This document shows positions 425 to 57,026 of a stretch of 64,000 bases of DNA, piece after piece. A model generated the notes under the pieces. That model was not told the origin of the DNA and did not search any database. It was given only the letters and a program-made list of their open reading frames with translations. Source of the stretch: Nitrososphaerales archaeon (GTDB taxonomy: Archaea; Thermoproteota; Nitrososphaeria; Nitrososphaerales; Gagatemarchaeaceae); the NCBI GenBank assembly GCA_049515775.1, contig JBEKTS010000002.1, forward strand, positions 1 to 64,000, read 5' to 3'. The first letter of the stretch is position 1, and each line of letters opens with the position of its first letter. A program made the position numbers and the translations under genes.

Positions 425-1867
425 TTGGAGCCCACCCTGCTCTCCTACGACAGAGGCACGATCGTCATCAGGGGCGACGTCAGGGTGCCCTACTCCAGCT
501 GGGACGGTCGGGTGCGGGCGTTCAGGGCCCCGGCCCTCTACTACCGGGAGATCGCCGAGTTCGTCGCCAGGAGCGGGATCTCGGGGGTGGGGGACACCGT
601 CCAGGACCTGCCTCCCCACCCGGCCCGCATGAGGTGCAGGACCGTCGCGATGAGGGGGTACCAGCAGAGGGCGCTCGAGTCGTGGGAGAGGGCGGGGAGG
701 CGCGGCGTGATAGTGCTGCCGACCGGGGCGGGGAAGACCGTGATAGCCCTGAAGGCGATCGAGCTCGTCAACGAGCCCGCGGTCGTCGTGGTCCCGACCC
801 TCGACCTGCTGGAGCAGTGGAGGAGGAGGGTCGAGGAGGAGCTCGGGATAGAGGCGGGCGCCTACGGTGGGGGCGAGAACACGGTGAAGGCCGTGACGCT
901 CTGCACCTACGACTCCGCCTACATCAGGGCGGCGGAGCTCGGCAACAGGTTCTCGCTGATCGTCTTCGACGAGGCCCACCACCTCCCGGGGGAGAGCTTC
1001 AGGCAGATAGCCGAGATGTTCACCGCCCCGTACAGGCTGGGCCTCACCGCCACCTACGAGAGGGAGGACATGCTCCACGAGGAGCTGCCCAGGCTGGTCG
1101 GGGGCGTGGTCTACAGGCTGAGGCCGGAGGACCTCGCCGGCAGGTACCTCTCCGACTTCCGGCTCGAGAAGGTGAGCGTGGACCTCACCCCGGACGAGAA
1201 GGCGGAGCACGACAGGAACTACGGGGCCTTCACGAGCTACCTCGAGGAGACCTCGACGCGCCTGGACTCTCCCGACGCCTTCCGGCGGTTCATCATGAGG
1301 ACCGCCACGGACCCCGCGGCGAGGCGGGCGCTCCTGGCGAGGAACAGGGCCCTCTCGATAGCCTTCAACTCCGAGGCGAAGCTCGACCGGCTCGAGGGGA
1401 TCCTTCGCACGAGCTCGGACGACGACAGGACGATCGTCTTCACCGAGCACAACGACCTCGTCTACAGGATATCGAGGAGGTTCCTGCTCCCCTTCATCAC
1501 GCACGCCACCGGCAAGGAGGAGAGGGAGGAGGTCCTGAGGGGCTTCAGGGAGGGGAAGTACCGGGCCGTCGTGACCTCGAAGGTGCTCGACGAGGGGATA
1601 GACGTCCCCGAGGCCTCGGTAGGGGTCATCGTGAGCGGGACGGGCAGCTCCAGGGAGTTCGTCCAGCGCCTGGGGCGGCTCCTGAGAAAGAGCGAGGGCA
1701 AGGGGCAGGCGAGGCTGATCGAGCTCGTCTCCCGGGGGACGGCCGAGACCAGGACGAGCAGCAGGAGGAAGAGGGCCAGGACGGAGGCCGCCGGCGGCGC
1801 CGAGGGCGGGGCTCGGGATGTCGATGGAGCCGCAGGCGACGACGGCGAGGGGACCACGGCGGCGTGA
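425..1867 (+). CDS. xpb: XPB/Rad25-type SF2 DNA repair helicase
   Basis: N-terminal damage-recognition domain (LSYDRGTIVIRGD), Walker A (LPTGAGKT), DEAH box (VFDEAHHL), motif VI (QRLGRLLR). TTG start. Confidence 0.9.
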   Translation: MEPTLLSYDRGTIVIRGDVRVPYSSWDGRVRAFRAPALYYREIAEFVARSGISGVGDTVQDLPPHPARMRCRTVAMRGYQQRALESWERAGRRGVIVLPTGAGKTVIALKAIELVNEPAVVVVPTLDLLEQWRRRVEEELGIEAGAYGGGENTVKAVTLCTYDSAYIRAAELGNRFSLIVFDEAHHLPGESFRQIAEMFTAPYRLGLTATYEREDMLHEELPRLVGGVVYRLRPEDLAGRYLSDFRLEKVSVDLTPDEKAEHDRNYGAFTSYLEETSTRLDSPDAFRRFIMRTATDPAARRALLARNRALSIAFNSEAKLDRLEGILRTSSDDDRTIVFTEHNDLVYRISRRFLLPFITHATGKEEREEVLRGFREGKYRAVVTSKVLDEGIDVPEASVGVIVSGTGSSREFVQRLGRLLRKSEGKGQARLIELVSRGTAETRTSSRRKRARTEAAGGAEGGARDVDGAAGDDGEGTTAA

Positions 1868-1889
1868 GAGGGAGGTCGCGACACCCTAG

Positions 1890-3512
1890 TTGCTCCCGTC
1901 GGAACTGCTGAGGGCGAGGGTCTCCCGAGGGAAGATACGGCCTGTCTTCGTCGCCCTCGACGGGGACGGGCTGGCGCTCGCGGAGCGTCTGACCCGCACC
2001 TTCGGGGAGGGGGTCGGCGCGCCCCGGGGGGCGCTCCTCGACAGGCTGCGGGAGATCGAGGGCGAGGGGCACGACTTCAAGCTTGTCAGGGGGCTCTCGA
2101 CCCTCCTCGAGAGGAGGGCGCTCTTCGAGGCCGAGAGCGGCGGCCTGGACCCGGCGACGGTGAGGAGCGCGGTCTTCAGGGAGGCGAGCCGCGCCAGGGC
2201 CCTGACGCCGGAGGAGAGGCGTGGGGTCCTCGGGAGGGTCGCGGGCGGGATGCGCGTCTCCCCGGAAGCGCTCGAGAGGGCGCTCTTCTGTGACGTCGAC
2301 GACGAGCTGGTCCTGAGGTCCTTCAGGCCGTTCTCGAGCTCCGAGACCCTTCTGCGGTACTACAACCTCTCCCTGACCCAGACGCTCCTGTTCAAGTCGC
2401 TCCGGGTCGAGTTCTCGGCCTCGGGGAACTGGAAGGGCATCCTCAGGGACGTGAAGAGGCTCGGCCTGATCTACTCCGTCGAGAGGGACGAGGCGAAGGG
2501 CGGTCGCTTCAGGGTCTCCATCGACGGCCCCCTCTCCCTCTTCAAGATGACCGAGAGGTACGGGACGTCCATCGCGAAGCTCCTCCCCCGGATCATCGCG
2601 TGCGACGAGTGGGACCTCAAGGCCGAGATACTCTCCAGGTCCAGGGGAAGGAAGGTCTACGAGTTCGAGGCCGAGAGCGGGGAGCTCGGGAGCCTCATGG
2701 TCGACGCCCGCTGGGAGGGAGAGGATGCGGCCCCCGCCGAACCCCTGTACGACAGCGGCACCGAGGAGAGGTTCGCCAGGTCGTTCGTCTCCTGCGGAAC
2801 GGGGTGGACGCTGACCAGGGAGCCGGACCCGCTCGTCGCCGGGACCCACGTGCTGATACCGGACTTTGTCCTGGAGAAGCACGGGACCAGGGTCTACCTG
2901 GAGGTGGTCGGGTTCTGGACGCCCGAGTACCTCGAGAGGAAGGTCGCGAAGCTGGGGGCCCTGGCCCCCGACATCGACATCGTAGTGGCCGCGGACGAGA
3001 GCCTCGCCTGCGCGAAGCTCGAGAGGCTGAAGCAGAGGAGAGGGGTCCTCGTGGTCTACTACAGGAGAGACGTCCCTCTCAAGCCGATAATCGAGCACCT
3101 CAGGGAGAGGGAGGCCTCGCTCTTCAGGCGGCAGGCGGAACGGCTCGCCGAGGGCGGAGGTCCCCCGATAGAGCTCCAGGGAGACATAGTCCGGATGCGA
3201 GACATCGCCGAGAAGAGGGGCGTCGCCGTGGCCTCGGTGAGGATGGCGCTCCGGGACCTCAGGCCAGAGGGGTACGCGAAGGTCGGGGAGAGCGCGTTCG
3301 TCTCGACCTCGAAGCTCGCGGAGGTCGCCGGGAAGCTGAGGGGGGTGGAGATGCTCACGGACGCCCTCGCGATCATCGAGGCCTCCGGCTTTGGTGCAGA
3401 CGAGGGGAACGAGGTTCTGGACGCGCTCGGCTACTCGTCGGTCTGGGAGGGGATGGACATGACCCGGGTCAGGATATCGAAGAGGGCGAGCGCGCCGTCG
3501 CCCGGACCGTGA
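1890..3512 (+). CDS. bax1: Bax1 nuclease (XPB partner, DUF790)
   Basis: 540-aa ORF immediately downstream of xpb on the same strand. Size and N-terminus (MLPSELLRARV) match the archaeal Bax1 family. The XPB-Bax1 operon arrangement is conserved in Archaea. Confidence 0.75.
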   Translation: MLPSELLRARVSRGKIRPVFVALDGDGLALAERLTRTFGEGVGAPRGALLDRLREIEGEGHDFKLVRGLSTLLERRALFEAESGGLDPATVRSAVFREASRARALTPEERRGVLGRVAGGMRVSPEALERALFCDVDDELVLRSFRPFSSSETLLRYYNLSLTQTLLFKSLRVEFSASGNWKGILRDVKRLGLIYSVERDEAKGGRFRVSIDGPLSLFKMTERYGTSIAKLLPRIIACDEWDLKAEILSRSRGRKVYEFEAESGELGSLMVDARWEGEDAAPAEPLYDSGTEERFARSFVSCGTGWTLTREPDPLVAGTHVLIPDFVLEKHGTRVYLEVVGFWTPEYLERKVAKLGALAPDIDIVVAADESLACAKLERLKQRRGVLVVYYRRDVPLKPIIEHLREREASLFRRQAERLAEGGGPPIELQGDIVRMRDIAEKRGVAVASVRMALRDLRPEGYAKVGESAFVSTSKLAEVAGKLRGVEMLTDALAIIEASGFGADEGNEVLDALGYSSVWEGMDMTRVRISKRASAPSPGP

Positions 3513-6653: not shown

Positions 6654-7895
6654 ATGACCGACTGCGAGGTCAGGGCGGGGACGACGGCGACGCTCGGCAC
6701 CGTCGAGGGGGAGCTGAGGGCGGGCCGCAACGTCACGATAAGGGCCCAGTCCGGCGGGAGGGTGGTGGTCACCGGCGGAGCGACCTTCGAGGGGGCCGCC
6801 GCCATAGGCTGCGACTTCGAGTGCAGGTCGATGCGGGTGGAGGGCCGCGGCTACGGCCCCGGAGGCGACGTCGCGGTCAGGGGCGACCTGACCGTCCACG
6901 AGCGCGCCGACATCAACGCCTCGACGCGGGTCGCCGGGGATGTGCGGGCGGACGATCTGGACGTCGGAGGGCACTTCCGGTCGCGCTCGCTCACGGCCAG
7001 ACGGGCACGCGTCGGCGGCCACATGACCGTTGAGGGCGCCCTCAAGGCCGAGTCGGTCGACGTCGGCGGCCACGCGAAGGTCGGCGGAGCGGTCGACCTG
7101 GTCAACCTGCGCGTCGGCGGCCACGCCGAGATAGGCGGGGGGAAGATCACGGGCGAGATCAAGGTCAGGGGGCACCTCCGGACCTCGAAGGAGCTCAGCT
7201 TCGGCGAGGTGGAGGTCTTCGGCAGCCTGAGGCTCCCCGCCGGCAGCGGAGGCCACCGGCTCAAGGCGATAGGGACGGTGGAGTTCGAGGGCGACGCCCG
7301 CTGCGACGAGCTCGAGGTCAGCGGGACGGCCCGGGTGAGGGGCGACCTGGCGGCCGAGTCGATCGAGGTGAGGGGCAGGCTCAGCGTCTCGGGGTCGATC
7401 AGGGTCGTCAAGAAGCTCAGGGTCTACGGGACCGTCGATGCGACCGGCGCGATTCAGTGCGAGACGCTGGGGGTCCTCGGCAGGCTCACCGCGGAGCACG
7501 TCACGGCCGCAGGGCACGTCGACATAGCCGGCGAGGTGAACACGGCCGCAGGCCTGAAGGCCGGGTCGGTGCTGGTCGGCAGGAGCTCCAGGGTGACGGG
7601 CCCGCTGGTCGGGGGCGAGGTCGAGGTCGGTCGCGAGACGGACTTCGGCAGCATGTGGGGGCTGCCCTGGTGGAGGAGCGCGGTGGGAGGGACGACCAGG
7701 GTCGAGGACCTCTACGGAACGACCGTCCGCATCTGGCCCAACTCGTCCGTCGGGCGCGTCTTCGGCGAGGTCGTCGAGCTGCGAGAGGGCACCGTCGCCC
7801 GCCGGATCACGTACACGAGCGACCTCAAGCTCTCGGGCGGGCGCGTCCACGACCCCCCGGTGAAGGCTGAGAAGCTGCCGGACCCACCGCTCTAG
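6654..7895 (+). CDS. Polymer-forming cytoskeletal (bactofilin/CcmA-like) repeat protein
   Basis: Periodic roughly 20-aa beta-helix repeats (VGGH..., GDVR.DDL.VGGH, VRG.L) across the whole protein, as in bactofilin-domain proteins. Confidence 0.6.
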   Translation: MTDCEVRAGTTATLGTVEGELRAGRNVTIRAQSGGRVVVTGGATFEGAAAIGCDFECRSMRVEGRGYGPGGDVAVRGDLTVHERADINASTRVAGDVRADDLDVGGHFRSRSLTARRARVGGHMTVEGALKAESVDVGGHAKVGGAVDLVNLRVGGHAEIGGGKITGEIKVRGHLRTSKELSFGEVEVFGSLRLPAGSGGHRLKAIGTVEFEGDARCDELEVSGTARVRGDLAAESIEVRGRLSVSGSIRVVKKLRVYGTVDATGAIQCETLGVLGRLTAEHVTAAGHVDIAGEVNTAAGLKAGSVLVGRSSRVTGPLVGGEVEVGRETDFGSMWGLPWWRSAVGGTTRVEDLYGTTVRIWPNSSVGRVFGEVVELREGTVARRITYTSDLKLSGGRVHDPPVKAEKLPDPPL

Positions 7896-8199: not shown

Positions 8200-8978
8200 G
8201 CCCCCCTCTCGCTCCCTCCCGGGCCTCGCTGGCGGCGCAGCGACGAACGCTTATGCCCGACCTTCGCCCCGGTCGTCGCGGGATGTCCGGAGCGAAGGCG
8301 ACGGAGCTCGAGAGGCTCGAGAGGGAGGTGGTGGACTGCCGTCTCTGTCCCAGGCTCGTGCGGTACAGGGAGACCGTCCCGCCCAGGGCCGCTTTCAGGT
8401 CCCAGGAGTACTGGAGGAAGCCCGTTCCGGGGTTCGGAGACCCGCGCGCGTGGCTGATGGTCCTGGGCCTGGCGCCCTCGGCCCATGGCGGCAACAGGAC
8501 CGGGCGCGTCTTCACGGGAGACGAGTCGGGGAGGTTCCTCGTGCGCGCGCTGTACGAGACCGGGTTCGCAAACCAGCCCACCTCGCTCTCGAGGGGCGAC
8601 GGGCTTCGCCTCGAAGGGTGCTTCATTGGGGCCGCGGCGAGGTGCGCGCCTCCCGACAACCGGCCTACCCCGGCCGAGTTCGATCGCTGCAGGCCATACC
8701 TGGAGCGCGAGCTCGAGCTGCTCTCCGGCCTCCGGGCCGTCGTCGCGCTGGGCCAGGCGGCCTTCGGCGCCTACGTGGACCTCGCCAGGAGGAGGGGCGC
8801 CAGGGTCGGGAGCGGAGGCTTCGCGCACGGAGCCCGCATACGCATCGACGGGATGCCGTGGCTCTACTGCTCGTATCACCCGAGCCCGCAGAACACCTAC
8901 ACGGGCAGGCTCACGGCGGAGATGCTCAACGGCGTATTCGAGGCGGCGAAGGCAGACCGCCCGGCCGATCGGGCGTGA
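8196..8978 (+). CDS. Uracil-DNA glycosylase, family 4/5 (UdgB-like)
   Basis: Motif A GLAPSAHGGNRTGRVFTGD and motif B CSYHPSPQN. The CRLCPRL cysteine cluster is typical of Fe-S UDGs. Confidence 0.8.
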   Translation: MSPPLAPSRASLAAQRRTLMPDLRPGRRGMSGAKATELERLEREVVDCRLCPRLVRYRETVPPRAAFRSQEYWRKPVPGFGDPRAWLMVLGLAPSAHGGNRTGRVFTGDESGRFLVRALYETGFANQPTSLSRGDGLRLEGCFIGAAARCAPPDNRPTPAEFDRCRPYLERELELLSGLRAVVALGQAAFGAYVDLARRRGARVGSGGFAHGARIRIDGMPWLYCSYHPSPQNTYTGRLTAEMLNGVFEAAKADRPADRA

Positions 8979-21569: not shown

Positions 21570-23222
21570 TTGAAGCTCTCCGCGTTCAAGGTCGAGAATT
21601 ATCGCTCCCTAAAGCAGGTCTCTCTTGAGAACATGGCCGAGCTCAACGTCCTGATAGGTAAGAACAGCTCCGGCAAGTCGAACCTCCTCGAGGCGATGAA
21701 CATGTTCTTCTCCGAGTTCGAGCCGGTGAAGGGCACCACCCCCGGGCTCAACGAGTACCTCTGGCACAAGGGGTCTACGGGACCGGTGGTCTTCGAGGCG
21801 ACCTTCGAGGTCACGGGGGACCAGCTCACCGGGCTCCCCGCCGAGGACCAGGCGTTCCTCGGCTCGGTCTTCGGCAAGACCGTGCCGTCGATACTGAAGA
21901 TAACGCGCACCCTGACCAACGCCCAGGGCGTCTGGAAGACAGACAGCATCGTCTGGGGCATCATCGTGATGGTCAAGGACGACGTCCCGCAGCTCTCGCC
22001 CAACCTGAAGATCGACTCTCCCACCCTGGAGAGGATCCTCAAGATCGTCTCCCAGATGATCAAGAACAGGTTCAGGCTCCTCGGCGCCAGCCGGGACGCC
22101 AGGGGAGGCGACCGGTTCAGGACGACGATGCTCGACGAGAACGCACAGGCCAGCCTCTGGAACCTGCAGCAGAGCACGTCCCTCCGCGACGAGGAGAAGT
22201 ACGTCGAGGTCGAGACGGCCTTCTCGGAGGTCACCTCGCTCCGGCTGGACCCCGCGCAGGCCAGGCTGATGGTGAGGAAGGGGAGCCGACGGTTCCCTCT
22301 CGGCCTCGAGGGCGGCGGGACCCAGGGAGCCGCGAACGTCCTCTTCACCGCCCTGGTGGAGACCGACGACTTTACGATACTCGGGATAGAGGAGCCGGGG
22401 ATCCACGGCCATCCTAGGCTGCAGCGGCGGCTATGCAGGGAGATCGAGAGGATCGCTCAGAGGAGGCAGGTGCTGATCTCGACGCACTCCCCCACGGTCG
22501 TCGACGCCCTCCCCGACGCCTCGATCTGGACGGTCGCGTTCGAGGACGGGCAGACGAGGACGGCGCGGGCCGACGATCTCCGGCGGTTGCTGCGCGAGCT
22601 AGGCTCGAGGCCCAGCGACGCGCTCTTCAGCGACCGCATAGTGGTCGTCGAGGGGGTGCCCGACAGGATGGTGCTGGAGGCCTTCGCGCGGAGGTTGGGC
22701 ATCGACCTCGCAGACGTCGCGTTCGTGACGACCAGGGGCAGCGGGAGCGAGACGCCCGCCAAGGCCCTGGAGGCGCTGGTCTCGGCCGCGGGAAGGGCGC
22801 TGCTCCCCACATTCGTCATCCTGGATGCGGACAGGTCCGCCGAGGCCTCACGGCTCGTCGAGGCGAAGCTCATCCCGAAGCAGCAGGTCCACGTCTGGAA
22901 GGCGGGCTCGATCGAGAGCTACTATCCGGCCGACGTCCTGAGGGAAGCGCTCCAGTCGATCTCCACGCGCTACTCTCTCAATCTGAACGTCGGCAAGTAC
23001 GTCCAGGAGTTCCAGTCGGGGAAGCTCAACCCGAACAGGATCGACATCGGCGACAAGGCGAGGCGCCTCGACTCCTCGTGGGAGATGACGCTGGCGGAGG
23101 AGGTCGCGGGGAGGCTGGAGAGGTCCCAGTCGGACCCACCCACCGAGATAAGGGACACGCTCGCCGCCATCGGGGCCGTCCAGACCGCCGCCCCTCCCGC
23201 CGTCACCTCCAGCCCGGCCTGA
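21570..23222 (+). CDS. OLD-family ATP-dependent endonuclease (ABC-ATPase + TOPRIM), class-1-like
   Basis: N-terminal ABC ATPase: Walker A GKNSSGKSN, signature-like LGLEGGGTQ, Walker B ILGIEEPGIHGHP, H-loop LISTHSP. C-terminal TOPRIM: IVVVEGVPDRMVLEAF (Glu) and FVILDADR (DxD). Confidence 0.8.
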   Translation: MKLSAFKVENYRSLKQVSLENMAELNVLIGKNSSGKSNLLEAMNMFFSEFEPVKGTTPGLNEYLWHKGSTGPVVFEATFEVTGDQLTGLPAEDQAFLGSVFGKTVPSILKITRTLTNAQGVWKTDSIVWGIIVMVKDDVPQLSPNLKIDSPTLERILKIVSQMIKNRFRLLGASRDARGGDRFRTTMLDENAQASLWNLQQSTSLRDEEKYVEVETAFSEVTSLRLDPAQARLMVRKGSRRFPLGLEGGGTQGAANVLFTALVETDDFTILGIEEPGIHGHPRLQRRLCREIERIAQRRQVLISTHSPTVVDALPDASIWTVAFEDGQTRTARADDLRRLLRELGSRPSDALFSDRIVVVEGVPDRMVLEAFARRLGIDLADVAFVTTRGSGSETPAKALEALVSAAGRALLPTFVILDADRSAEASRLVEAKLIPKQQVHVWKAGSIESYYPADVLREALQSISTRYSLNLNVGKYVQEFQSGKLNPNRIDIGDKARRLDSSWEMTLAEEVAGRLERSQSDPPTEIRDTLAAIGAVQTAAPPAVTSSPA

Positions 23223-47837: not shown

Positions 47838-47935
47838 TGGCGGGCCCGGCAGGATTTGAACCCGCGGCTTCTAGCTCGCCTCACCTTTTTGGGGATTAGA
47901 AGGCTAGCGCTCTATCCGTACTGAGCTACGGGCCC
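47838..47935 (-). tRNA. tRNA-Arg(UCU) with 20-nt intron at canonical 37/38 position; CCA encoded
   Basis: Acceptor stem GGGCCCG/CGGGCCC with discriminator G and CCA. D-arm GCUC/GAGC. Anticodon arm CUAGC-CUUCUAA-[intron UCCCCAAAAAGGUGAGGCGA]-GCUAG. T-arm GCGGG-UUCAAAU-CCUGC. Confidence 0.75.
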
Positions 47936-49475: not shown

Positions 49476-50423
49476 CTAGCTGAGGTGGACCCATCCCTTC
49501 TTCGGTATCTCGTCCCCGCCCGCCATCGTGACCTTCCTCCCCTCCTCGACGGCCTCGCCTATCACCATGAGGTGGGCCCCCGCGGCGCTGGCGGCCGCGA
49601 CGGCCCCCGCGAGCCCGTCCTGCGGAACGGTGCCGACGATCTCGTACTCCTCCCCGCCGTAGAGAACGAGATCTTCGAGCCGATAGCCGTTCTGCGCCGC
49701 GAACCCCTCGAGGGGTCTGGCGTGGGGGAGCGAGTCGATCCTAATCCCGAGGCGGCTCGCCTCCGCTATCGAGTGGAGGCAGATGGCGAGCCCGTCGGAC
49801 GAATCGGTCGCGGAGGAGAGGTGCCCCCGGAGCGCGAGCCCGGCCGCGAGCCTCGGCGAGGGCCTGCGGACGCTGCGGAGCGCCGCCCTCCCGAACCCGG
49901 GGGCCGCCTTCGCGCCATCCAGGAGCATCTTCAGCCCCGCGGAGGTCGTCCCGAACTCGCCCGTCACGACCACCAGGTCCCCGGGGCTCGCACCACCCCT
50001 CTCGACGATGCGGTCCGCGAACCCGGCCACGATCGAGTCGATGACCACGTCGTCCGCCTCGTTGGTGTCCCCCCCGACGAGGTGCAGCCCCCACTCGGCC
50101 GTCCCGTCCCCGATCCCCCGGGCGACCGCGCGCACGTCCCCGTCGCTCAGGCTGCGCGGTATCCCCAGCGAGACCATCAGCGCCAGAGGGGCGACCCCCT
50201 TCGCGGCGAAGTCGCTGACGCACATGGCCACCGCCTTGCGACCCGCCTGCCTCCAGGTCATACCGGGCGGTACGTCGGTCCTGCCCACGAGCATGTCTGA
50301 CTTGAGGACCAGCCTCCCGGCGGAGCTGGGAAGGCTGGCGACGTCGTCCCCCAGGGGGGAATACCCCGCTGGGAGCCTCCCGGCCGTCCTCGTCAGGAGG
50401 TCTATGATCTCGTACTCATTCAT
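49476..50423 (-). CDS. thiL: Thiamine-monophosphate kinase (AIR-synthase-related fold)
   Basis: LGDDVA, MLVGRTDVP, GGDTNEAD, GEFGTTSAGL. Confidence 0.75.
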   Translation of the reverse strand: MNEYEIIDLLTRTAGRLPAGYSPLGDDVASLPSSAGRLVLKSDMLVGRTDVPPGMTWRQAGRKAVAMCVSDFAAKGVAPLALMVSLGIPRSLSDGDVRAVARGIGDGTAEWGLHLVGGDTNEADDVVIDSIVAGFADRIVERGGASPGDLVVVTGEFGTTSAGLKMLLDGAKAAPGFGRAALRSVRRPSPRLAAGLALRGHLSSATDSSDGLAICLHSIAEASRLGIRIDSLPHARPLEGFAAQNGYRLEDLVLYGGEEYEIVGTVPQDGLAGAVAAASAAGAHLMVIGEAVEEGRKVTMAGGDEIPKKGWVHLS

Positions 50424-56616: not shown

Positions 56617-56768
56617 TGCTGTGAGGCCCCTCGCGTCCCCTGCCAGGCGGCAGCTCCCCCGTCCGTCCCATCGTCGAGAAATCCCCGCGGCTCGTGATTA
56701 ATAGTTTTGTCCGAACTGCGCCTCCGACCCGGGACGGCAGAGGCAGCGAGCCCTCTCTTGAGTGTGAG

Positions 56769-56859
56769 AGCCGGCGACGGGCTTTGATCCCATGACCCCA
56801 CGCTTACGAGGCGTCTGAGCCCAATTATGGAGTGCTCTACCAGGCTGAGCTACGCCGGC
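56769..56859 (-). tRNA. tRNA-Thr(CGU) with about 17-nt intron at non-canonical position 27/28
   Basis: Acceptor stem GCCGGCG/CGCCGGC with discriminator U. D-arm GCUC-AGCCUGGUA-GAGC. After intron removal (UCCAUAAUUGGGCUCAG) the anticodon arm is CACGC-CUCGUAA-GCGUG. Variable loop GGGUC. T-arm AUGGG-AUCAAAG-CCCGU. A TTTTAAAA box lies 27-34 nt upstream. Confidence 0.5.
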
Positions 56860-57026
56860 GCTAATCGGGGGACCTCCTTTTCCCGTCCTTTTAAAATGTA
56901 GACCGTCCCCATCGCGCCCTACCGGCGGGACCCGTCGGGCGGGTCGCATCGGCGCGAGCGGAAGCGTGCGCACCGACGGCCGACTCGGAAGAGTTTTAGA
57001 ACCTCGGGTTGGGAGGCGGTGCTTGT

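Follow-up and report, generated by a model that had tools for sequence, protein, structure and literature searches.

A tRNA-Thr(CGU) gene with a 17-nucleotide non-canonical intron between positions 27 and 28 in a high-GC Nitrososphaerota genome

The tRNA-Thr(CGU) Gene and Its Parse

The DNA considered here comprises the first 64,000 nucleotides (nt) of contig JBEKTS010000002.1 (assembly GCA_049515775.1) and is referred to below as the window. It belongs to a metagenome-assembled genome (MAG) of the archaeal order Nitrososphaerales with a GC content of 68%. On its minus strand, the window carries a gene for tRNA-Thr(CGU) at 56769-56859, and this gene is interrupted by a 17-nt intron (56815-56831) located between tRNA positions 27 and 28. 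The parts of the gene are listed below.

56769..56859, minus strand: pre-tRNA-Thr(CGU) gene, 91 nt, no encoded CCA (Rfam RF00005, ARAGORN locus and reading of the sequence)
56832..56859, minus strand: 5' exon, tRNA positions 1-27, with the acceptor 5' strand, D-arm, A26 and C27; these first 28 nt are identical in the intron-less locus L006 and in eight intron-bearing loci
56815..56831, minus strand: intron UCCAUAAUUGGGCUCAG of 17 nt at site 27/28; alignment with L006, L066, L096, L100 and L101 shows it as one clean indel
56769..56814, minus strand: 3' exon, positions 28-73, with the remainder of the anticodon arm, the variable loop (GGGUC), the T-arm, the 3' strand of the acceptor and the discriminator U (reading of the sequence and alignment)
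56806..56808, minus strand: anticodon CGU, which reads ACG (ARAGORN calls the spliced sequence tRNA-Thr(cgt))

The 5' exon is GCCGGCGUAGCUCAGCCUGGUAGAGCAC and the 3' exon begins with ACGCCUCGUAAGCGUG. Read 5' to 3', the precursor RNA consists of GCCGGCG UA GCUC AGCCUGGUA GAGC A C, the intron UCCAUAAUUGGGCUCAG, and ACGC CUCGUAA GCGUG GGGUC AUGGG AUCAAAG CCCGU CGCCGGC U. Removal of the 17 nt leaves a mature product of 74 nt that folds into a cloverleaf with stems of 7, 4, 5 and 5 bp and a 7-nt anticodon loop containing U33. A first-pass annotation, made from the window's sequence, had proposed this gene with its 17-nt intron at 27/28, and the proposal has been borne out by an intron-less orthologue, by eight further intron-bearing loci and by covarying base pairs that span the splice junction, all described below. 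The details that it gave (anticodon stem CACGC/GCGUG, loop CUCGUAA with U33 and A37, 5-nt variable loop GGGUC, 74-nt product) match the sequence as well.

Standard tools handle the gene poorly. Unspliced, it scores 35.8 bits against the Rfam tRNA family (RF00005; gathering score 29) in local and permissive whole-window searches, and the whole-window Rfam run with the default filter overlooked it. ARAGORN reports positions 56768-56859 on the minus strand as 'tRNA-???' with a meaningless two-base anticodon. The failure of a canonical 37/38 parse, also claimed in the first-pass annotation, is seen in ARAGORN's canonical-intron mode, which still returns '???' for the precursor; neither a better canonical-intron model nor the absence of a tRNA came out of the ARAGORN and Rfam runs. 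When spliced in silico, the window sequence and those of two related loci (L090 and L092; loci retrieved for comparison are numbered with the prefix L) are each called tRNA-Thr(cgt). In intron mode, ARAGORN gives wrong names to the genes with the 27/28 intron: '???', Pro(tgg), His(gtg), Glu(ttc) and Ala(tgc) were obtained among L090, L092, L097, L099 and the window.

Orthologous Loci and the Intron Boundaries

Species-representative genomes (one per species) were scanned with the pattern CTCGTAA-N12-GGGATCAAAGCCC, which combines the anticodon loop with the odd T-arm of the gene and presupposes no intron. The scan matched 87 stretches, nearly all of them in Bathyarchaeia MAGs. One related MAG, L006, carries GCCGGCGTAGCTCAGCCTGGTAGAGCAC-ACGCCTCGTAAGCGTGGGGTCATGGGATCAAAGCCCATCGCCGGCT, which is the two exons of the window fused at 27/28 with a single difference in the T-stem (G64 to A). 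ARAGORN calls this 74-nt gene tRNA-Thr(cgt); its Rfam score of 61.7 bits exceeds that of the unspliced gene of the window by 26 bits. Because L006 has exactly both exons joined at this point, a chance origin of the 27/28 parse is excluded. The comparison also fixes the boundaries to the base: only removal of 56815-56831 yields the L006 sequence GAGCACACGCC, and shifts of one base yield GAGCAGACGC or GAGCACTCGC instead. In a MAFFT alignment, every 27/28 intron is one clean indel from C27 to N28.

Two further searches extended the set of loci. A metagenome scan anchored on the 3' exon alone retrieved L089, L090 and L092, which have the intron, and L091 and L093, which are intron-less. The contigs of homologues of the neighbouring GT39 glycosyltransferase gene provided L094, L095, L097, L098 and L099 with a 27/28 intron, and L096, L100 and L101 with none at that site. 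Across 9.4 kb, L089 is 90.5% identical to the window and its intron is identical. The block tRNA-Arg(UCU)-PGM-AIRS-PGM-...-fumC-FeS-GT39-tRNA-Thr is present in L089 and is found whole or in part in L094-L101, and the tRNA-Leu(GAG) neighbour of tRNA-Thr is kept throughout the syntenic loci. Since gene order is conserved, the tRNA-Thr loci are taken to be orthologous.

In total, nine loci, the window included, carry the 27/28 intron, as eight distinct sequences of 15-17 nt:

Window and L089: U-CC-AUAAUU-GG-GCUC-AG, 17 nt
L090: U-CC-AUAUU-GG-GCUC-AG, 16 nt
L092: U-CC-UUUGU-GG-GCUC-AG, 16 nt
L095: U-CC-AAUAG-GG-GCUC-AG, 16 nt
L094: A-CC-AUAG-GG-GCUC-AG, 15 nt
L097: A-CC-ACCUU-GG-GCUC-AG, 16 nt
L098: A-CC-AUCA-GG-GCUC-AG, 15 nt
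L099: A-CC-AUCUU-GG-GCUC-AA, 16 nt

All nine share the architecture N-CC-(4-6 nt variable loop)-GG-GCUC-A(G/A). The bases at intron positions 2 and 3 (CC), the GG, the GCUC and the penultimate A are invariant, and the loop of 4-6 nt differs in almost every sequence. A regular-expression search of the 830 kb made up of the window and the retrieved loci found this architecture in the nine tRNA-Thr(CGU) genes only, so there is no sign in these 830 kb that the intron has been transposed to other tRNAs.

Several observations were made around the syntenic block. The edges of the 90.5%-identical block shared with L089 lie at window positions 47840 and 57123, which correspond to the 3' end of tRNA-Arg(UCU) and to a point just past the 3' end of tRNA-Leu(GAG); outside the block bounded by these two tRNA genes, the DNA of the window and that of L089 are unlike. 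Upstream of the GT39 gene, the motif GTTCGGACAAAACTATTAATCAC (56694-56716, minus strand) is nearly invariant in L094-L100 while its flanks diverge, and it is probably the promoter or a regulatory site of that gene. A gene related to AIR synthase (AIRS/AIRS_C) adjoins tRNA-Thr(CGU) in most of the Bathyarchaeia loci (most of L002-L088) and is still found near it in the window (49476-50423, minus strand); its linkage to this tRNA gene is unusually deep.

Conservation of the Mature tRNA

When the intron columns are skipped, the cloverleaf is conserved without a single unpaired cell (273/273) across 13 distinct orthologues. Controls in which the pairing was slid gave 31-53% paired. In a shuffle control, none of 500 replicates reached the observed pairing percentage and covariation score, and 6 of 500 reached the count of six compensatory pairs. 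The compensatory changes fall at six pairs, including pairs of the T-stem. Covariation is seen at both of the pairs around the splice site: 27-43 is CG in ten orthologues and UA in three, and 28-42 is AU in six, UA in four, CG in two and GC in one. Within the intron-bearing genes themselves, the latter pair is either A28-U42 or U28-A42.

The T-loop of the gene deserves separate comment.

56782..56788, minus strand: T-loop AUCAAAG, with A54 and G60 (reading of the sequence)

The canonical T-loop has U54-U55-C56-R57-A58. The loop of the window is standard at positions 55-58 and has A at position 54. According to a review, U54 is universally conserved, the exception being A54 of the eukaryotic initiator tRNA. 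The first-pass annotation had called this A54 unusual, and the base is real; it is, however, recurrent. Among the fetched loci, AUCAAAG occurs in 87 tRNA-Thr(CGU) genes and the similar AUCAAGG in two tRNA-Thr(UGU) genes, and about 50 tRNAs of other kinds in these loci have the T-loop UUCRAAU. The A54 loop is specific to tRNA-Thr (CGU and UGU) in about 87 genomes of Bathyarchaeia and Nitrososphaerota. From this distribution, it reads as a feature conserved among the tRNA-Thr genes of Bathyarchaeia and their relatives and not as a defect of the gene. Among nearer relatives of the window, further T-loops occur: UCCAAUU and UCCGAAU, in both of which position 55 is C, as well as UUCAACU and AUCGACA.

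Upstream of the gene lies a putative promoter element.

56889..56896, minus strand: TATA-like box TTTTAAAA (candidate promoter), separated from the 5' end of the tRNA by 29 nt

The motif (C/G)ATTTTAAA(A/T)G is found at an equal distance in L089, L094 and L096-L101. In addition, ACG accounts for 336 of the 742 threonine codons (45%) in 32 open reading frames (ORFs) of the window, so the cognate tRNA should be in heavy demand.

Could the gene be a decaying pseudogene, with the 17 nt an inactivating insertion that is never spliced and another copy doing the work? The low score of the unspliced sequence, the inability of ARAGORN to name the gene and the non-canonical T-loop would fit such a view, and the genome has been seen in part only. 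The pairing and covariation, the TATA-like box and the demand set by ACG codons argue against it. The insertion is kept at one site in nine loci, although the neighbouring GT39 genes are only 67-88% identical to that of the window, and its variation is limited to its loop. The exons remain perfectly foldable with compensatory changes, the promoter box is conserved, A54 belongs to the lineage and not to damage, and ACG is a major codon. A pseudogene is therefore considered very unlikely.

Bulge-Helix-Bulge Motif and Proposed Splicing

Archaeal introns that are removed by protein enzymes are bounded by a motif called the bulge-helix-bulge (BHB). The first-pass annotation had named this fold as a check on its parse; the motif is present, and the fold of an isolated fragment and the RNAalifold consensus agree on it. 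Its central helix, H, is formed by the following strands.

56834..56837, minus strand: exon strand of helix H (G22 A23 G24 C25; these bases double as the 3' strand of the D-stem; fragment fold and RNAalifold consensus)
56817..56820, minus strand: intron strand of helix H (GCUC), invariant in the nine intron loci

Helix H (GAGC/GCUC) has four Watson-Crick pairs, and all four are kept in each of the eight distinct introns. On the 5' side, A26-C27-i1 form a clean 3-nt bulge, and the splice site comes behind base two. The 3' side has the bulge A-G-A28 (A-G-N28 across loci), where the splice site again comes behind base two; this bulge is followed by an A21·C29 mismatch and so folds as a 1x4 internal loop. 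An outer helix of 3 bp, h, comprises G18-C32, G19-C31 and U20·G30 (C20-G30 in L095) and competes with the anticodon stem. The inner helix h' (CC/GG) closes the variable loop and is invariant in the eight distinct sequences; in the window it has an additional, third pair, A-U. The isolated 36-nt fragment adopts the BHB fold at -8.2 kcal/mol. From the eight sequences, RNAalifold gives the consensus h (3 bp), H (4 bp), 3-nt bulge and h' (2 bp), and all nine BHB pairs form in every one of them. Cuts predicted from the bulges, between C27 and U and between G and A28, give the intron-less sequence of L006. As modelled, the motif appears close to a strict hBHBh', in a form slightly relaxed by the A21·C29 mismatch.

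A splicing pathway can be proposed from these features. GCUC of the intron would pair with G22-C25 and push out the 5' strand of the D-stem, creating the 4-bp central helix of the BHB. The 5' splice site would then lie in the 3-nt bulge, between A26-C27 and U, and the 3' splice site between A-G and A28, beside the A21·C29 mismatch and the 3-bp outer helix (G18 G19 U20 with G30 C31 C32), while the variable loop would be closed by the CC/GG of the intron. The archaeal splicing endonuclease EndA would cleave behind the second base of each bulge, and a ligase of the RtcB type would connect C27 to A28. Ligation would restore the CACGC/GCGUG anticodon stem and produce a 74-nt tRNA that reads ACG. 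The first-pass annotation had held that such sites need a relaxed-specificity endonuclease; at 27/28 this is plausible and supported only in part, the motif being close to strict. The (alpha-beta)2 form of EndA has been reported to be conserved in Thaumarchaeota, and no enzymes other than (alpha-beta)2 and epsilon2 have been reported to remove relaxed, non-canonical introns; from this literature, the host would be expected to encode an (alpha-beta)2 enzyme.

Several points weigh against this interpretation. The BHB helices are invariant and offer no covariation, so their support comes from setting motif bases that never change against a loop that varies in sequence and length. The minimum free energy (MFE) fold of the full-length precursor pairs the intron with the 5' strand of the D-stem and not in the BHB, and forcing helix H costs 1.6-4.2 kcal/mol relative to it. 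The BHB is thus not the MFE structure of the whole precursor, and thermodynamics alone does not choose it; we infer that the precursor must adopt a different structure, in which the D-stem and the upper end of the anticodon stem are open. The outer helix also requires G18-U20 of the D-loop, besides its competition with the anticodon stem. No gene for EndA (tRNA_int_endo) or RtcB was found in the window by a Pfam scan of 57 of its 59 predicted ORFs and four further ORFs. Excision, ligation and expression are predicted here from DNA rather than observed in RNA. Finally, only part of the genome is in view, and a second, intron-less copy of tRNA-Thr(CGU) is possible elsewhere in it. With these points taken into account, we put the probability at about 0.9 that the window, from a Nitrososphaerota (Thaumarchaeota) MAG of high GC content, carries a working tRNA-Thr(CGU) gene split at 27/28 by a 17-nt, protein-spliced archaeal intron.

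Two other accounts of the 17 nt have to be weighed, and both are remote. In the first, the intron is real and its boundaries are other than those given, either at the canonical 37/38 site or shifted by at least one base. Repeats of flanking bases can make intron sites ambiguous, and the Rfam alignment merely passes over 32 nt and defines no site. The boundaries are nevertheless set by L006, whose sequence no other deletion reproduces, and by the covariation at pairs 27-43 and 28-42; in addition, the canonical-intron mode of ARAGORN has no model here, although it does detect the canonical intron (20 nt) of the neighbouring tRNA-Arg(UCU) in the same run. In the second, the 17 nt would be retained in a functional tRNA-like RNA with an extra small hairpin. 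The intron does form a small hairpin, and ARAGORN draws a pseudo-cloverleaf with the remainder as a long extra arm, but this drawing is without a valid 7-nt anticodon loop. The insert is absent from the close relative L006 and from the more distant syntenic orthologues L100 and L101, and its conserved bases are exactly those that a BHB requires, with each splice site following the second base of its bulge. Either account seems barely tenable.

Other candidates were rejected. A canonical 37/38 intron gives no model with ARAGORN -i, and the insertion sits 5' of the anticodon loop; shifted boundaries are ruled out by the comparison with L006; and a self-splicing group I or group II intron, a ribozyme of more than 100 nt, is incompatible with an intron of 15-17 nt and has no Rfam intron family match in the region at E values up to 10.

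Relation to Known tRNA Introns

Introns outside the canonical tRNA position are already well known and are common in the archaeal group of the host. The tRNAscan-SE 2.0 work reports 673 non-canonical introns in 217 archaeal genomes and includes a dedicated Thaumarchaeota model (Thaum-BHB-noncan). In its Table S7, three Nitrososphaerales genomes with 141 tRNA genes have 53 non-canonical and 44 canonical introns. The review by Yoshihisa lists the non-canonical positions 20/21, 22/23, 25/26, 29/30, 30/31, 45/46, 53/54, 56/57, 59/60, 'etc.'; position 27/28 is not named in this list, which is open-ended, and other catalogues may or may not include it.

The intron of the window resembles the non-canonical BHB introns of Thaumarchaeota and Crenarchaeota (Marck & Grosjean, 2003; Sugahara et al., 2008) in being short, located outside 37/38, bounded by a BHB and such that its excision restores the cloverleaf. 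It differs from them in its site, absent by name from the Yoshihisa review, and in its host, a non-cultured MAG lineage with 68% GC. Another parallel is the tRNA-Thr(GGU) of Caldiarchaeum subterraneum, which has introns at 24/25 and 45/46 with heterogeneity in the population (Sugahara et al., 2012, PMC3293823). Both cases concern a tRNA-Thr of the TACK archaea with non-canonical introns whose presence varies among close relatives, and with tRNA fragments and recombinase or integrase genes nearby, which in the present case lie in relatives of the window; the isoacceptor (CGU in the window) and the intron site are different. In Aeropyrum pernix, standard and non-standard introns of a pre-tRNA-Thr are cut by an (alpha-beta)2 EndA with a Crenarchaea-specific loop (Hirata et al., 2011, PMC3241643). 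That precursor is likewise a tRNA-Thr with an intron off the canonical site, and cleavage by the broad-specificity EndA was shown experimentally. By comparison with this biochemical proof, the intron of the window is known from sequence, and it belongs to another phylum and another position.

A comparison within the window is provided by the 37/38 intron of tRNA-Arg(UCU). It shares with the 27/28 intron its genome, presumably its enzyme and its BHB, and both introns are absent from lower-GC relatives. In tRNA-Arg(UCU), unlike the 27/28 intron, the central helix is formed by bases of the anticodon loop and the outer helix is the anticodon stem, so no arm is unfolded.

The known mechanism of splicing is unchanged by the 27/28 intron. 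What it adds, for the Thaumarchaeota of soils and peat, is a clade-wide and well-bounded case of a non-canonical intron, and its intron-less and differently interrupted orthologues are useful material on intron gain and loss. There is also a point for annotation: default scanners overlook or misname the interrupted tRNA-Thr(CGU) gene, and automated annotations of MAGs with this intron probably lack tRNA-Thr(CGU) or contain a wrong tRNA in its place.

Distribution and Probable Gain and Loss of the Intron

How has the 27/28 intron come to be distributed among these loci? The nine loci that carry it have a GC content of 56-68%. It is absent from L006, L096, L100 and L101 and from the lower-GC L066, L091 and L093. 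In a crude neighbour-joining tree of one protein, GT39, the loci L096 and L100, which lack the 27/28 intron, nest inside the intron-bearing group. This nesting makes one or more further events (gain, loss or gene replacement) likely, and a tree of one protein is too weak for counting them.

Other interruptions were noticed by eye in orthologous tRNA-Thr(CGU) genes. L095 has a 21-nt intron at 15/16 (7616-7636; BHB parsed by eye) alongside its 27/28 intron. In L096, a 20-nt intron at 59/60 (about 8506-8525) has a textbook hBHBh' in a by-eye parse, and the Nitrosopumilales MAG L028 has a 19-nt intron at 22/23 in the D-arm, also parsed by eye.

Fragments of the 3' halves of tRNA-Thr or tRNA-Leu are found 0.15-2.8 kb from the intact genes, with tyrosine-integrase genes adjoining. 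The sites of such fragments and integrases are L095 9524-9546 and 6099-7289, L101 423-454, L099 1104-2420, L045/L075, L079, L096 5404-5420 and L097 8143-8165. It looks as if integrative elements use the tRNA-Thr/tRNA-Leu pair as an attachment site, and such elements may explain the differing T-arms among close relatives. A mobile-element model of intron gain has been proposed for the tRNA-Thr of Caldiarchaeum (PMC3293823), and the tRNA fragments and integrases of the relatives recall it. In the window itself, no tRNA fragment or integrase was found, and nothing here connects the mobile-element model to the origin of its 27/28 intron.

A broader proposal would take the tRNA-Thr(CGU) locus of Nitrososphaerota and Bathyarchaeia as a series of recurrent intron gains and losses (at 15/16, 22/23, 27/28 and 59/60), possibly with replacement of T-arms by integrative elements, and 27/28 as a previously uncatalogued site. 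The idea of T-arm replacement comes from the 3'-half fragments and integrases nearby and from the four different T-loops among close relatives. As a whole, this proposal is speculative and rather unlikely to hold. If true, the locus could directly test whether integration or recombination of mobile elements creates archaeal tRNA introns, or whether introns shield tRNA genes from integration.

Other Features of the Window

The GC content along the window is 65-70%, and the nearer homologues of its proteins are labelled Thaumarchaeota or Nitrososphaerota. A gene pair for the XPB helicase and the Bax1 (DUF790) nuclease (425-3512, plus strand) fits an archaeon. At 21570-23222 on the plus strand, a protein of the OLD family with ATPase and TOPRIM domains (AAA_15, AAA_21, OLD-like TOPRIM) is encoded, which is a possible defence gene.

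Three tRNA genes are present, two of them with introns, one of which is non-canonical; a permissive whole-window Rfam scan gave only these three and no further disrupted tRNA. The second interrupted gene is the following.

47841-47935, minus strand: tRNA-Arg(UCU) with a canonical 20-nt intron at 37/38 (47877-47896) and an encoded CCA (Rfam 59.2 bits)

This gene was overlooked by ARAGORN with default settings, and ARAGORN -i recovers its intron. Its orthologues are intron-less in the lower-GC loci L066, L091 and L093 and have introns of 15-20 nt in L094-L096.

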